Positions 26,296 through 35,100 of a DNA stretch of 64,000 bases are shown piece by piece (positions within the stretch are counted from its first letter, which is position 1; every line of letters starts with the position of its first letter). The stretch lies in the NCBI GenBank assembly GCA_039811685.1, contig JBDHZC010000002.1:544001-608000 (forward strand), given 5' to 3'. A program made the position numbers and the translations under genes. The DNA comes from Armatimonadota bacterium (GTDB lineage: Bacteria; Armatimonadota; UBA5829; DSUL01). The notes below the pieces were generated by a model. It worked only from the letters and a program-made list of their open reading frames with translations. It was not told where the DNA came from and made no database searches.

Positions 26296-28851
<2,556 letters not shown>

Positions 28852-28865
<14 letters not shown>

Positions 28866-29319
28866 AGAGCAAGGATTTGAAATTGTTGACAAGCGCAGGT
28901 TGGGCGAAACTGAACCACCACAGCCAGACATTTCTCGGAACGCGGAATCAGCCGCAACACCTGAAACCTCGCACTCTAGCGTCTCGACCGAGGCCAATGC
29001 GGCAACGCCCGACCCTTCGGAAACGGACCCCGAGCTTCTCGGCCCTCCAAACGTTGAAAGCTTGCTAGCTTATATGTTGAATCTGCTCGCGACTTCGGCG
29101 TGGCAGTGGATGGGTGTCATTATGAACCCTGAAACATCCGAGGCAACTGTGGATATTGGGCAGGCGCGACTGGCCATCGATACCTTTGAGGCAGTGGCTG
29201 AGAAGCTGAGCCCCTCACTTGATGAGCGAACACGCCGGGAGATCCAAAATGCCCTTGCTGACTTGCGTGTCAACTTTGTCGAGAGATCTACCAAAGCGCC
29301 GTCGGGCGGCGCATCCTGA
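28852..29319 (+). CDS. DUF1844 domain protein
   Basis: GFEIVDKRR N-terminus; MG...NP.T.....DI.QARLAID...LADLRVNFV. Confidence 0.8.
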
Positions 29320-29810
29320 TGGAACGACTGTGGGCACCGTGGAGAATGCAGTACATCGACCGCGGAGAGACGGAGGGCTGTATCTTTTGTGATAAGCCGC
29401 GTCTAGCGGACTCAGAAGCACTTATCGTGCACAGGGCGCAACACACCTTCGTTATGATGAATGCTTTTCCATACAACAACGGGCACGTGCTGATAGCTCC
29501 CTATAAACACACTTCCAGCATTGGAGACCTTTCACGTGACGAACGTCTCGAAATTATGGATATGCTAGACCTGTGCATACAGACCCTCAAGCTCACAGCT
29601 AATCCTGAAGGGTATAATTTCGGCGCCAACCTGGGGCGTGTTGCCGGAGCCGGAGTTGCTGAGCATGTCCACTTCCATCTTGTGCCTCGCTGGAACGGAG
29701 ACACGAACTTCATGCCCGTCGTAGCGGATACCAAAGTGCTGCCGGAGGCGCTACAGACAGTGTGCGACAAGCTGCGAGAAGCGCTCAAGAGATCGAAGCC
29801 ACAGTCGTGA
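29319..29810 (+). CDS. HIT domain protein (Ap4A phosphorylase/hydrolase-like)
   Basis: LWAPWR, CIFC, FPYNNGH, HVHFHLVPRWNGD. Confidence 0.93.
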   Translation: MERLWAPWRMQYIDRGETEGCIFCDKPRLADSEALIVHRAQHTFVMMNAFPYNNGHVLIAPYKHTSSIGDLSRDERLEIMDMLDLCIQTLKLTANPEGYNFGANLGRVAGAGVAEHVHFHLVPRWNGDTNFMPVVADTKVLPEALQTVCDKLREALKRSKPQS

Positions 29811-30457
29811 ACGACTCCCTTACAGAAGCTCTTTCAAGAATCGCCCGGGAAGCTTCCAACTGCCGCAACTGTGATCTCTCCGAGACACGGACGAATGTGG
29901 TGTTCGGCGAGGGCAATCCGGACACGCCGCTGATGATTGTCGGAGAAGGACCGGGGGAGACAGAAGACCTCACGGGACGGCCATTTGTGGGGCGTGCCGG
30001 CGCCCTCCTGGACGAGTGCCTGGCGGAAAACCGAATAACTCGTAAGCACGTCTACATCACAAACGTCGTCAAGTGTCGCGCTTGCACGCTCGAAGGGAAA
30101 CGGAAAAAAAACAGACCTCCAACTCCAGGAGAAGTCTCAGCCTGCGCACCCTGGCTACAGCAGCAATTGGAGATTATCAAGCCGCTTGTTGTGATGTGTA
30201 TCGGGGCATCCTCCGCTAATGCACTTATCCACAAGAACTTCAAGATTATGCAGGAAAGAGGCAGGTTCTTTGAAGTTCCGTTCGCACGCGCGGCGATTGC
30301 TGCGCTGCACCCGGCTTACATCCTTCGGCAGCACGGGCAAGCCTATCAGGACGCACGCGCCACGCTTGTCGCTGATATCGCAGCAGCTCGACAGAAGGTT
30401 ATCGAGATCAAGAAAGCCGACGATTACGCAAGCGAGAGCGGTCTTTTCCAGCCATAG
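29807..30457 (+). CDS. Uracil-DNA glycosylase family 4 (Fe-S)
   Basis: CRNCDL, VGEGPG, PFVGRAG, NVVKCR, LHPAY. Confidence 0.93.
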   Translation: MNDSLTEALSRIAREASNCRNCDLSETRTNVVFGEGNPDTPLMIVGEGPGETEDLTGRPFVGRAGALLDECLAENRITRKHVYITNVVKCRACTLEGKRKKNRPPTPGEVSACAPWLQQQLEIIKPLVVMCIGASSANALIHKNFKIMQERGRFFEVPFARAAIAALHPAYILRQHGQAYQDARATLVADIAAARQKVIEIKKADDYASESGLFQP

Positions 30458-32259: not shown

Positions 32260-32268
32260 TGTTATAAT
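32260..32268 (+). promoter_or_regulatory. Extended -10 promoter of the GCS2/PSD operon
   Basis: TGTTATAAT about 23 nt upstream of the first ATG. Confidence 0.55.
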
Positions 32269-32291
32269 AGCCGCGCGATTGCTGGGAATGG

Positions 32292-33281
32292 ATGCCTATG
32301 CCGACACTTGGACTTGAAGAAGAAGTATTCATAACCGAGCCTGAGCGACCATCACTGCGGTCGCTGTACTATCTGGCACGCCTCTTGGCAAAGAACCCGA
32401 GATACTACTATGTGCACTCTGCGTCCAACTTTGCGCGTCTGGGCGACATTCGGCACGGGTTGATGAGTGGCGTTGAGATTTCTACCGGCGTCCACACAGA
32501 TGCAGAGGCGCTTCTGGAAGACCTTGCGAAGCGCCGCCAGGACCTCAGCTCCGTCGCCAGCGGACTGATCGTCTCAGTGGGACATCTTCTCGAGCAAAAC
32601 ACCCCCTCGAACGTCTGTGGGCTTCAGATACACGTCGGATCCCGCAATAAAGAGCGCACTTACAGAAATATCGTCCATTTTCTCCCACTGCTCATGCTGT
32701 TGACAGCGAACTCACCAGGAGTCAATGGGCGACGCTATGGGAAGTCCTACCGAATCGCCAACTCCTTTGCCATCGGCCCCCTGACTCCCGATCGGACTCG
32801 GCGCTTTCAGGACATTATCTACTCCAAACGACTTGGCACCATTGAGGTCCGGGTCTGTGATCCGACCTGGGACCGCAACAGAATCCTTGCGCTCATAAGG
32901 GCTCTGGTCGCGATAGAAGCCCTGGGAGTGGAGTATCCGTTCAACCCTGTAGAGTACAACGAAATGCGAGGGATATCGGCGTCTGAGGGTTACACAGAGA
33001 GACACAAGACGCTCTACGGGGAGTTGTCGCAAATATGCGACGTGGATGAGTCACTCTTTATCACGTCTCCGGCGGATCAGCTCTGGGATATCTACCAGCA
33101 ACAGGGAAGCGTAGCCGCATATTCAGCCGTCGACAGCAGCTACCGTGGAGGTGAGTTCGCACCTCATCCCGTCAAGCGGCGGCATGTGCTGGGAGAGATC
33201 GCTGCGGGCGCTGCAGGACTTGCTGGATACTTCGTGCCCAAACTACCGTATTACACCTGGAAGGCTATCATCGAATCATAG
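32292..33281 (+). CDS. Glutamate-cysteine ligase family 2 (GCS2/YbdK-like) carboxylate-amine ligase, divergent
   Basis: TLGLEEE, VEIST, CGLQIHVG, LLTANSP, SYR, GTIEVRVCD motifs. Confidence 0.8.
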   Translation: MPMPTLGLEEEVFITEPERPSLRSLYYLARLLAKNPRYYYVHSASNFARLGDIRHGLMSGVEISTGVHTDAEALLEDLAKRRQDLSSVASGLIVSVGHLLEQNTPSNVCGLQIHVGSRNKERTYRNIVHFLPLLMLLTANSPGVNGRRYGKSYRIANSFAIGPLTPDRTRRFQDIIYSKRLGTIEVRVCDPTWDRNRILALIRALVAIEALGVEYPFNPVEYNEMRGISASEGYTERHKTLYGELSQICDVDESLFITSPADQLWDIYQQQGSVAAYSAVDSSYRGGEFAPHPVKRRHVLGEIAAGAAGLAGYFVPKLPYYTWKAIIES

Positions 33282-33312
33282 GCTTCTGCGTCTCAGCTAG
33301 ATTCTGTCTATC

Positions 33313-34029
33313 GTGATCACATTTCTTCTGACAATTGCGGCGCTGGTCTTTTGTGGCGGCCTCGGGCTCGTATTTCTGCGGACCGTCTGGTTCCACAGAG
33401 ATCCGAAACGCGTCCCATCGCTCACGGAAGATGTCCTTATTGCTCCTGCGGACGGGATGGTCGTGTACACGCGCCCGTTCCAGGAAGGGCGCGTAGTTTC
33501 AGACAAACTTGGAGAGCAGATTCCCATAACTGAGATCCTCCACGAAGGACAGGCTGCTGGTTCAGGATGGATGCTCGGCATCTACATGTCGCCGTTAGAC
33601 GTGCACTTCAACTACGCACCCTGCGGCGGAGTCGTTGAGAGCATCCACCACAAACAGGCGGAGCTGAATCTCCCAATGATCGATATGTGGGAATATGTCC
33701 GAATCGTATGGTTCCGCCGGCTGGTCCAACTCTTTGGACGGCGCTTCCATCTGGAAAATGAACGCAGCACGTTCTTTCTTCAGTGCGGGTCTCTGCGCCT
33801 TGCAGTGGTCTTGATAGCTGACAAGTTTGTCAGCAAGATACAGACTTTTGTCTCTTCTGGCGACAGCGTCAGGTGCGCTGACAAGCTTGCCTTTATCGGT
33901 CGCGGATCGCAGGCGGATGTCGTTATCTTTGACCAGAATGTCGAGCTGACCGTAGCGCCAGGCCAGCGTGTGCGCGGCGGAGAGACAGTCATTGCAAAGC
34001 TAAAGAGGAGTCAGCGATGCGACGCATGA
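33313..34029 (+). CDS. Phosphatidylserine decarboxylase-family proenzyme
   Basis: N-terminal TM, F.RDP.R, APADG, IYMSPLDVH.N.AP, NER, and a GRGSQ pyruvoyl cleavage site. Confidence 0.85.
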   Translation: MITFLLTIAALVFCGGLGLVFLRTVWFHRDPKRVPSLTEDVLIAPADGMVVYTRPFQEGRVVSDKLGEQIPITEILHEGQAAGSGWMLGIYMSPLDVHFNYAPCGGVVESIHHKQAELNLPMIDMWEYVRIVWFRRLVQLFGRRFHLENERSTFFLQCGSLRLAVVLIADKFVSKIQTFVSSGDSVRCADKLAFIGRGSQADVVIFDQNVELTVAPGQRVRGGETVIAKLKRSQRCDA

Positions 34030-34385
34030 ACTCAGCAGTGCCAATCGTTCTCATCGCGCTTATACTTTTTCAGTCGTGGCAGATCGTGCAGCTACGGCGT
34101 CAGGTCCAGGCCATTTTGCAGACGCAAGATCATCCCGCAGCCGTGTCCGATTCAGTGACCAAACGTGAGACCGCGGCGCAGTATCTGCGGAAGGCGTTAA
34201 ATGCTTTGCAGAGTGGTAAGATTGAACAAGCTCAAAAGGCAGCCAGGACTGGTGTGGCCGAGCTGGAGAGATATGCTCGCAAACCTCAATCCATCACTAT
34301 CCAAAAAGGACTGCAGGCGACCAGAGAGCACTTGGAGAAACAGTTACATTTCATCTATCAACCCGCTAAAGACGGCAAGAAGTGA
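34026..34385 (+). CDS. Hypothetical membrane-anchored helical protein
   Basis: ATGA overlap with the psd-like stop; N-terminal hydrophobic anchor. Confidence 0.6.
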   Translation: MNSAVPIVLIALILFQSWQIVQLRRQVQAILQTQDHPAAVSDSVTKRETAAQYLRKALNALQSGKIEQAQKAARTGVAELERYARKPQSITIQKGLQATREHLEKQLHFIYQPAKDGKK

Positions 34386-34407
34386 CTCATCTCTGCAGGT
34401 TGCGCGG

Positions 34408-35100
34408 GTGACAGTCACTTGCATAGTGCCTGCCTACAACGAGGCCTCCAGGATAAAACCCGTGCTGGAGGCAATTCACCGCGCCTCCCTGGTTGACGAC
34501 ATCCTGGTGGTGAGCGACGGTTCGAGAGACCGCACCTACGACACCGCTTTGGAGGTATGCGGAGTCCGAGCTGTTGAACTGGCGAATAACAGCGGCAAGG
34601 CAGCGGCTATGTGTGCAGGCGCTTCGCGCTGTGAGGCGGATATCATTCTCTTCCTGGATGCGGATTTGTCTGGTCTTGAGCCACGACACGTAGACGCCAT
34701 CGTGAAGCCTGTGCTGGAAGGCTCTGCTGACATGGCCGTAGGCGTCTTTCGCGGCGGCCGTTTCTGGACTGATCTCGCGCAAAAAATAGCGCCGGTTATT
34801 TCTGGTCAACGCGCCATCCGCCGCGATCTCTTCCTCCAGGTCCCTCATCTTGAAGAGGTACGTATGGGAGTGGAGATCGCGCTTACCCAGTGGTCACGAG
34901 TGAACCGGATTCGCGTGGCAGAGGTGATTCTGGACGGAGTGACGCACCCTATGAAAGAGGAGAAGCTGGGGCGCATTCGAGGGTTTGGTTCGCGCATGCT
35001 TATGTACTGGGAGATTGGTAAAGTCATGATGACCAGCCGCCATCTGCGCAACGGTTGCAGTGCAAAGCAGAGCTCTCACGTCGAGGACTCATCCCACTAG
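34408..35100 (+). CDS. GT2 / GT-A fold glycosyltransferase
   Basis: IVPAYNE, VSDGSRDRT, NSGKAAA, FLDADL, ISGQRA, GVE. Start approximate. Confidence 0.88.
   Translation: MTVTCIVPAYNEASRIKPVLEAIHRASLVDDILVVSDGSRDRTYDTALEVCGVRAVELANNSGKAAAMCAGASRCEADIILFLDADLSGLEPRHVDAIVKPVLEGSADMAVGVFRGGRFWTDLAQKIAPVISGQRAIRRDLFLQVPHLEEVRMGVEIALTQWSRVNRIRVAEVILDGVTHPMKEEKLGRIRGFGSRMLMYWEIGKVMMTSRHLRNGCSAKQSSHVEDSSH

Follow-up and report, generated by a model that had tools for sequence, protein, structure and literature searches.

A PSD-type decarboxylase gene paired with a carboxylate-amine ligase gene in Armatimonadota and other bacteria: a candidate route to amine lipids

Textbook bacterial phospholipid synthesis runs via CDP-alcohol phosphatidyltransferases, and phosphatidylserine decarboxylase (PSD) is read as a marker of phosphatidylethanolamine (PE) synthesis. 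Here we describe a locus in which a PSD-type gene has a different partner. It lies in a 64,000-nucleotide (nt) stretch of the genome of an uncultured Armatimonadota bacterium (contig JBDHZC010000002.1), hereafter the window, to which the coordinates of the locus refer. Positions 32292-35100 hold four co-oriented open reading frames (ORFs), all on the + strand, which code for a divergent ligase of the GCS2/YbdK fold, a PSD-family pyruvoyl decarboxylase, a membrane protein with one helix and a family 2 glycosyltransferase (GT2). The ligase and the PSD are the conserved core of this locus, and their adjacency is beyond chance.

Several described systems resemble parts of the locus. As in the PssA-Psd route, a pyruvoyl enzyme of the PSD family that retains the Asp, His and Gly-Ser motifs is encoded next to the gene expected to make its substrate, sometimes with a DedA gene nearby. 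However, the partner is an ATP-dependent amide ligase and not a CDP-alcohol phosphatidyltransferase, no PssA was found in the genome, and the PSD falls into a clade of its own, marked by two inserts and by substitutions next to the active serine. The ligase shares with YbdK/GCS2 enzymes and with GCL, GS and PafA the fold, a marginal Pfam match, the GxEEE motif at the N terminus and conserved columns of acidic residues, His and Arg; compared with YbdK it is about 40 residues shorter, scores 46 bits against a cut-off of 176 bits, has a conserved amphipathic C-terminal helix and forms its own compact, PSD-paired family behind a score gap. In butirosin synthesis, BtrJ and BtrK offer an analogy only: gamma-glutamylation is followed by alpha-decarboxylation to a 4-aminobutyryl group there as well, but by ATP-grasp and pyridoxal phosphate-dependent enzymes that act on carrier-protein-bound substrates in a soluble pathway. 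Mycothiol and bacillithiol synthesis likewise clusters a sugar transferase, a deacetylase of the PIG-L family and an ATP-dependent ligase, and a PIG-L de-N-acetylase gene stands directly upstream of the ligase in 20 of the 80 loci that a scan of species-representative genomes yielded. In contrast to those pathways, PIG-L is here predicted outside the membrane, the ligase is of another family, a decarboxylase is added and all parts are membrane associated. The N-glyceroyl-alkylamine phosphoglycolipids (NGA-PGL) of Deinococcus, Thermus and Moorella occur in partly overlapping hosts (Moorellia); common features are the lack of PF01066, the Pfam family of PssA/PgsA-type enzymes, a GT2 that resembles phosphoglycerate glycosyltransferases, and N-acetylglucosamine (GlcNAc) and glucosamine (GlcN) forms that would match GT2 plus PIG-L. 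On the other hand, Thermus is without PSD, Thermus and Deinococcus radiodurans are without a ligase-type match, and many PF01066-free relatives of our genome are without the pair. Finally, the GT2 has its best match, in structure as in sequence, in GpgS (GT81). It differs in reaching only 60.8 bits against the cut-off of 262 for the GpgS model NF010496, its best NCBIfam match, in a C-terminal amphipathic helix, and in being fused in Bacillota, via one transmembrane (TM) helix, to a PIG-L de-N-acetylase followed by a C-terminal domain.

Conservation of the pair and absence of PssA-type enzymes

In all 14 ligase-bearing relatives the PSD gene lies directly downstream of the ligase gene on the same strand. 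The same order recurs in 57 of the 80 loci, in at least six phylum-level groups as labelled; the 80 loci come from Armatimonadota, Moorella/Neomoorella, Thermacetogeniaceae, Syntrophomonadaceae, Thermaerobacter, Symbiobacterium, Coprothermobacter, Caldisericota, metagenome-assembled genomes of Coriobacteriia and others. Cultured carriers are Neomoorella/Moorella species and Coprothermobacter platensis, and genomes labelled Symbiobacterium thermophilum and Thermaerobacter marianensis carry the genes as well.

Counts per genome gave the same picture. Within the class of our bacterium, 15 of 41 genomes have the ligase and 16 have the PSD, namely the same 15 and a 69%-complete genome in which the PSD stands at a contig end; in the class of Neomoorella, 17 of 28 genomes have the ligase and the same 17 have the PSD. 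The Fimbriimonadales (n = 61) contain the ligase in 36 genomes, the PSD in 35 and both in 34 (35, 34 and 33 of 60 without genome G109, which is flagged as unpublished). Since the two genes are on different contigs or 2.5 Mb apart in 26 of these 34 genomes, the co-occurrence is independent of linkage. When the three samples are pooled (130 genomes), 66 genomes have both genes, 60 have neither, two have only the ligase and two only the PSD, and at least three of the four single-gene genomes come from assemblies that are incomplete (69% complete) or small (1.4 Mb and 1.7 Mb). We give no p-value for the co-occurrence because related genomes are not independent. Furthermore, the pairwise identities of the ligases and of the PSDs, compared over 43 loci, correlate with r = 0.90, a value that none of 999 permutations reached and to which shared ancestry contributes. 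A preliminary description of this DNA had presented all four genes as one set. They are not a fixed operon: the core is ligase plus PSD, and GT2 and PIG-L are commoner than the pair. The neighbourhood search which that description proposed found the adjacency in relatives and distant loci together with the near-perfect co-occurrence. Its remark that no pathway with this pairing had been described agrees with the searchable literature, in which we found no description of the pairing.

The genome is 97% complete and contains CdsA (183 bits). No CDP-alcohol phosphatidyltransferase of the PssA/PgsA type was found in it with PF01066 (PF03034 was not searched for); the same search matched 13 of 14 control genomes. 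The absence of a pssA or CDP-alcohol transferase gene, which had been pointed out for the window, thus holds for the whole genome, both for PF01066 and for synthases of the phospholipase D (PLD) type. Among the relatives, PF01066 was detected in 4 of 41 genomes of the class, in none of the 61 Fimbriimonadales and, never with more than a single copy, in 11 of the 28 Neomoorella-class genomes. The complete sequences of Neomoorella carbonis and Coprothermobacter platensis lack it, and so do 10 of the 17 genomes of the Neomoorella class that have a PSD. Among the control genomes, Thermus thermophilus is without PSD, and D. radiodurans has a PSD and no PF01066.

An ORF of ~1000 amino acids (1029 aa) with a PLD-like domain was considered as a phosphatidylserine synthase and rejected, as it codes for a ResIII/helicase protein of the restriction type. 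It lies outside the window at C2:~634517-637858, contains the only PLD-like domain of the genome and has a restriction- or defence-type look.

The ligase and the decarboxylase

The ligase matched PF04107 marginally, with 24.7 bits (cut-off 21) over residues 108-154 only, and its best NCBIfam model is TIGR02050 with 46.4 bits against a cut-off of 176.4; none of the eight listed YbdK or GCL models was reached at cut-off. An AlphaFold2 (AF2) model built from 26 homologues has a pLDDT of 88.8 and ends in a conserved, amphipathic helix (residues 299-328). Foldseek with this model returned YbdK first (1tt4/1r8g, E 3e-10, TM-score 0.61), followed by GshA, PafA/Dop and glutamine synthetases, so that, judged from the predicted structure, the ligase is a divergent member of the carboxylate-amine ligase fold, in line with the GCS2/YbdK assignment first made from the letters alone. 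In the alignment of the 26 sequences the acidic, His and Arg columns (E9-E11, E62, H114, R154 and E185) are invariant, and so are S24, Y27, L28, P36 and Y40 as well as the C-terminal G309, Y313, P319 and K324; the extra aromatic and amphipathic segments to which the preliminary description drew attention are therefore present and conserved. The protein has no TM helix, only the long amphipathic C-terminal helix (TM helices and topology were called throughout with our own hydropathy and charge-bias script).

The ligase family is compact. An exhaustive profile search of 1.84 billion representatives gave 100 matches at E ≤0.001, 38 of them below 1e-30, and at the edge of the family the score falls from 268 bits to <100 bits for the next relatives. 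The longer members (P0146, P0141 and others) contain no extra Pfam domain. Searches of whole genomes were less sensitive: PF04107 misses even this ligase, and its control genomes are therefore uninformative, while TIGR02050 detects the ligase only at E 3e-4 and, with this marginal sensitivity, gave no match in D. radiodurans or T. thermophilus, which is weak evidence. A plasmid collection searched with the ligase gave no match, nor did a search that covered the plasmids of Deinococcus and Thermus. Designer PPR repeats, the top sequence matches of the ligase profile in the PDB, were discarded as spurious; YbdK appeared there only at E 0.01-0.2. The ESM Atlas returned GCS2-type clusters only, and one of these, with 54 GCS2-like proteins of ~331 aa that are labelled mostly as phage (Uroviricota), stood at 0.94 against the ligase. 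A complex prediction for ligase and PSD ended with a score of 0.00 and the verdict 'no answer', and we used it for neither side.

The PSD-like protein, the sole PSD of the genome, gave a full-length match to PF02666 with 112.4 bits (profile positions 5-198 of 198). It reached none of 13 NCBIfam PSD models at cut-off, the best being NF003685 (107.5 against 183). Its TM helix comprises residues 4-22 and, because positive charges follow this helix (four after it, none before), the catalytic part is predicted to be cytoplasmic. G198, S199 and Q200 as well as D47 and H98 are invariant in 30 sequences. In an alignment with E. coli PSD, the Asp of the PADG motif and the first His coincide, and Tyr stands in place of the second His of the E. 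coli motif; at this position, five short pssA-linked PSDs have Arg or Trp. With the Asp, the first of the two His and the Gly-Ser cleavage site retained, the ligase-linked PSD is expected to be a self-processing pyruvoyl decarboxylase.

In order to place the PSD, references were collected by tblastn against plasmid and chromid records, which yielded 42 PSD genes with 23-30% identity. Five of these were opened (Paracoccus, Ruegeria, Bacteroides, Tsukamurella and Azospirillum), and each is directly followed by pssA or by a phosphatidylserine/phosphatidylcholine synthase gene. The 30 ligase-linked PSDs share a mean identity of 54% with one another and of 29% with the five pssA-linked ones, and the tree separates the two groups with 100/100 support, on a small reference set of five from plasmid or chromid records only. 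The phylogeny against true Psd that had been asked of this gene thus gave a separate clade. The ligase-linked sequences have two inserts that are absent from the five pssA-linked PSDs, one of them being the amphipathic stretch already noted in the preliminary description along with NER and RGS, all of which are present. The cleavage-site motif is RGSQ in the ligase-linked PSDs but FGSR in the pssA-linked ones (GSR in 5/5), and the His motif reads DVHFNY instead of the xNxHVNR type (HV(N/Q)R in 4/5). These differences suggest that the substrate pocket of the ligase-linked PSD differs from a pocket for a phosphoserine diester.

Two further PSD observations concern single genomes. In the class of Neomoorella, G054 and G056 contain a second PF02666 match away from the ligase, which is full length in G056 (125.9 bits) and covers profile positions 110-197 only in G054 (57 bits). 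In the Fimbriimonadales genome KatS3mg018 (L106:7270-8148), where the PSD is unlinked from the ligase, a gene for a HAD-family hydrolase follows it and one for a 514-aa protein without Pfam match precedes it.

Accessory genes and layout of the locus

The GT2 matched PF00535 with 74.8 bits, and its best sequence matches in the PDB are GpgS and DPMS, about equal. Its AF2 model (pLDDT 85.4) shows a long amphipathic C-terminal helix, and Foldseek placed GpgS first (27% identity, TM-score 0.65), then MpgS, GtrB and ArnC (17-22% identity for the GtrB/ArnC type). No hydrophobic segment exceeds the hydropathy threshold, hence the protein is without C-terminal TM helices of the GtrB/ArnC/DPMS type. A GT2 gene belongs to 27 of the 80 loci; in Armatimonadota it follows the PSD, and in Bacillota it precedes the ligase. 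In the Fimbriimonadales an orthologue (E <1e-68) was found in 51 of 61 genomes, that is in 32 of 34 with the pair and 18 of 24 without it. The NF010496 search matched 14 of 14 control genomes and is therefore non-specific for this GT2 and uninformative on an orthologue in Deinococcus or Thermus.

The PIG-L orthologue of this genome stands alone at C2:416085-417791, ~128 kb upstream of the start of the window. It is membrane-anchored, 49% identical to the PIG-L part of the GT2-PIG-L fusion of Neomoorella/Moorella, and continues past the catalytic domain for ~250 residues, a C-terminal extension predicted outside the cell. PIG-L occurs in 29 of the 41 class relatives, including all 16 with PSD. 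In all five PIG-L proteins examined, two of which are GT2-PIG-L fusions, one TM helix stands before the domain and more positive charges lie N-terminal of this helix; by the positive-inside rule the deacetylase is predicted to work outside the membrane. As GT2 and PIG-L are both more widespread than the ligase-PSD pair, they look like an older core to which ligase and PSD were added.

The small membrane protein has its TM helix at residues 6-24 and reached no Pfam or NCBIfam family above cut-off. A similar small protein lies between PSD and GT2 in 12 of the 80 loci (cluster c5), the shown examples being all of the Armatimonadota type, and tblastn found it in 3 of 14 relatives (32-34% identity). 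A DedA/VTT protein is encoded after the PSD in 15 of the 80 loci. In five loci (among them L045, L046 and L049 of Neomoorella/Moorella) a gene for a lysine-2,3-aminomutase-like radical SAM protein (PF04055 plus LAM_C) follows ligase, PSD and DedA on the same strand. In three loci without an adjoining PSD (L082:7168-7845, L083 and L087:7193-7873), the gene immediately before the ligase codes for a TM-less CE4 polysaccharide deacetylase; the two of these that were scanned matched PF01522 with 120 bits.

The features of the locus are listed in Table 1. Homologues of the ligase begin at the second of its ATG codons (32298), and the likely start of the GT2 is the GTG at 34408, 23 nt past the preceding stop. 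Ligase and PSD genes are separated by 31 nt. The PSD gene overlaps the membrane protein gene by 13 nt when the latter starts at ATG 34017 (GAGGAG lies 6 nt upstream of that ATG), and by ATGA (34026-34029) when its second ATG is taken, so that the close spacing, common orientation and ATGA overlap reported at the outset are present. The TGnTATAAT promoter proposed with them stands in part: the motif TGTTATAAT is there, but no -35 element is present, for which reason a promoter consensus scan did not list it, and the scan found 2 promoter-like sites against a mean of 1.9 in shuffled sequence, that is no excess. For these reasons we treat TGTTATAAT as a motif only.

Table 1. Positions of the locus features in the window
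Feature	Position	Strand	Remarks
Extended -10-like motif TGTTATAAT	32260..32268	+	24 nt 5′ of the first ATG of the ligase; read straight from the letters; motif only
Divergent ATP-dependent carboxylate-amine ligase, GCS2/YbdK fold	32292..33281	+	329 aa; probable start 32298
PSD-family pyruvoyl decarboxylase, ligase-linked subfamily	33313..34029	+	238 aa
Small protein, one N-terminal TM helix and helical tail	34017..34385	+	122 aa; without family above cut-off
GT2/GT-A glycosyltransferase	34408..35100	+	about 230 aa; ORF open from 34201

The neighbours in the window are ParA and ParB genes upstream, on the opposite strand, and RuvB downstream; neither was found in the 1.5-kb flanks of the relatives' loci. 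Beyond ParAB, after ligA, positions 28467-30457 contain ordinary-looking co-oriented genes for VanZ-like, DUF1844, HIT-family and uracil-DNA-glycosylase-family proteins.

A candidate pathway and its alternatives

We propose that the ligase makes an amino-acid lipid which the PSD-like enzyme decarboxylates, so that in bacteria without a phosphatidylserine synthase a two-step pathway at the membrane surface would replace the PssA-Psd route. To this reading we give an even chance. Three observations suggest that the ligase supplies the substrate of the PSD: the two genes are strictly paired, PssA is missing, and the gene order ligase-PSD-DedA parallels pssA-DedA-psd in Bacillus subtilis. A membrane setting is supported by the N-terminal TM helix of the PSD, the amphipathic C-terminal helix of the ligase and the DedA/VTT gene in 15 loci. 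Which acid is ligated, which lipid accepts it, what product results and in which order the two steps run are inferences in what follows. In the first step the ligase would use ATP to form an amide bond between a side-chain group of an amino acid and a membrane lipid, with the alpha-amino and alpha-carboxyl groups left free. The gamma-carboxyl of glutamate or the beta-carboxyl of aspartate would most likely be placed on a lipid amine; ligation of a lipid carboxylate to the side-chain amine of a diamino acid would be less likely. The membrane-anchored pyruvoyl enzyme, judged from its family, would then strip the alpha-carboxyl, which would leave a PE-like head group with a primary amine, for example a 4-aminobutyryl or beta-alanyl amide. 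Side-chain ligation of glutamate (or aspartate) is the simplest chemistry because a pyruvoyl decarboxylase requires a free alpha-amino acid and, to our knowledge, the characterised members of the YbdK/GCL/GS fold activate the gamma-carboxyl of glutamate. This specific version, side-chain ligation to a lipid amine followed by alpha-decarboxylation, remains tentative, and we consider it somewhat more probably wrong than right. The GpgS-like GT2, the outward PIG-L, and DedA (in Bacillota) or the small one-helix protein (in Armatimonadota) may serve glycosylation, flipping and trimming of the same lipid.

Several observations weigh against this proposal. The PF04107 score of the ligase is marginal, 23 of the 80 loci have no adjoining PSD (some with <1 kb of downstream flank), and ligase forms fused to other parts (>576 aa), including a ligase-PSD fusion, were not found, although this is weak evidence. 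A PSD can exist without this ligase, since D. radiodurans, which has one, was not matched in the marginal TIGR02050 ligase search. We know of no lipid amine in these organisms, and polar-lipid data for cultured Armatimonadota were not found in the literature searched. The sole amine that the gene set could make, GlcN via PIG-L, is predicted on the outer face, away from the ATP-dependent ligase, which argues against a simple order of deacetylation followed by glutamylation. Moreover, phosphoglycerate is the substrate of the enzyme that the GT2 resembles, and a glycerate-type acid with reversed steps would suit this at least as well.

This last point is the basis of the alternative in which the PSD makes a lipid amine from a lipidic alpha-amino acid, the ligase amidates this amine with glycerate or phosphoglycerate, the GT2 adds GlcNAc and the outward PIG-L trims it to GlcN, which would lead to a lipid of the NGA-PGL type. 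We regard it as rather unlikely, even though much would fit. GpgS, the closest relative of the GT2, glycosylates phosphoglycerate, which is the hydroxy analogue of the phosphoserine head group, and the predicted topology is free of conflict (GT2, ligase and PSD inside, PIG-L outside). PF01066 is missing in the hosts as it is in D. radiodurans, a known NGA-PGL producer. According to passages of a 2022 paper (PMC9636437), the NGA-PGL head group is a glycosylated, phosphorylated glyceroyl amide, and Thermus has GlcNAc and GlcN forms (PGL and PGLN) that would fit GT2 plus PIG-L; the enzymes for these forms are described there as unknown. N-glyceroyl alkylamines are tabulated for Moorella thermoacetica (a table in PMC13274423), and 17 of the 28 Neomoorella-class genomes carry the gene set. 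In the literature searched, we found no paper on the genes behind NGA-PGL synthesis. Against this scheme, a long-chain 2-amino acid would be required as PSD substrate, for which no source is known, and T. thermophilus makes NGA-PGL yet has no PSD. Neither T. thermophilus nor D. radiodurans was matched in the TIGR02050 search, at its marginal sensitivity. In addition, the pair is missing in 26 of 41 class relatives and in 24 of 61 Fimbriimonadales, the latter all without PF01066, so the main phospholipid route of these lineages does not need it. A link of our locus to N-glyceroyl-alkylamine phosphoglycolipids is nevertheless possible, and the proposed route could be widened accordingly: PssA-less lineages (Armatimonadota, Moorellia, Coprothermobacter, possibly Caldisericota and Symbiobacterium/Thermaerobacter) would make an amine lipid by ligase plus PSD, and with GT2 and PIG-L this would be the missing NGA-PGL/PGLN machinery for the dominant lipids of Moorella. 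We think it doubtful that this extension is correct.

Ordinary PE synthesis, with a true phosphatidylserine decarboxylase fed from an unknown phosphatidylserine source, and a ligase that N-acylates PE or has an unrelated membrane function, had been named as an alternative from the beginning. The full-length PF02666 match of 112 bits and the retained catalytic residues speak for it, as does the DedA gene beside the PSD, which is reminiscent of the pssA-ybfM-psd operon of B. subtilis; DedA is also found near the canonical psd-pssA genes of Azospirillum. We consider it quite improbable all the same, since this genome has neither PF01066 nor a PLD-type synthase, all 61 Fimbriimonadales lack PF01066, the PSD tracks the ligase and not PF01066 (as the PSD-positive genomes of the Neomoorella class without it demonstrate), and the PSDs form a separate clade with altered residues beside the pyruvoyl serine. 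A little less probable still is an Arn-like decoration of the envelope, in which the GT2 would load GlcNAc on undecaprenyl phosphate, ligase and PSD would modify the sugar, DedA would flip the product and PIG-L would deacetylate it outside before transfer to a wall polymer. The matches of the GT2 to GtrB, ArnC and DPMS, the tie of DedA proteins to undecaprenyl-phosphate recycling, the extension of PIG-L predicted outside the cell and the CE4 deacetylase gene that directly precedes the ligase in three of the 80 loci would agree with such a scheme. However, the GT2 is nearer to GpgS than to GtrB and ArnC and lacks their C-terminal TM helices, clustering of the neighbours in the 80 loci revealed no conserved neighbour of the GT-C type that could act as final transferase, and the PSD family is known for glycerolipids and one soluble substrate, not for polyprenyl sugars. 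A soluble small molecule, either a conjugate like bacillithiol or mycothiol or a solute of the glycosylglycerate type and its amide, with incidental membrane anchors, appears very improbable. The combination of glycosyltransferase, PIG-L-family deacetylase and ligase follows the logic of thiol synthesis, the product of GpgS is soluble, and a HAD hydrolase gene stands after the PSD in one Fimbriimonadales genome; on the other side, the TM helix of the PSD and the amphipathic tail of the ligase are conserved, a TM helix divides PIG-L from the cytoplasmic GT2 in the fusions, and DedA follows the PSD in 15 loci.

In the reading that we prefer, an amino-acid lipid made by the ligase and decarboxylated by the PSD-like enzyme, the novelty would lie in a PSD-type head-group pathway that is fed by an amide ligase in place of PssA; the four proteins all belong to known superfamilies. 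It ties a PSD-type enzyme to an amide-forming ligase in lineages where no PssA/PgsA-type enzyme was found. If this reading is true, the annotation 'phosphatidylserine decarboxylase' would be misleading in these phyla, and the pair would represent a new chemical route to amine head groups. How such bacteria build unusual phosphoglycolipids would then become testable in the cultured carriers.

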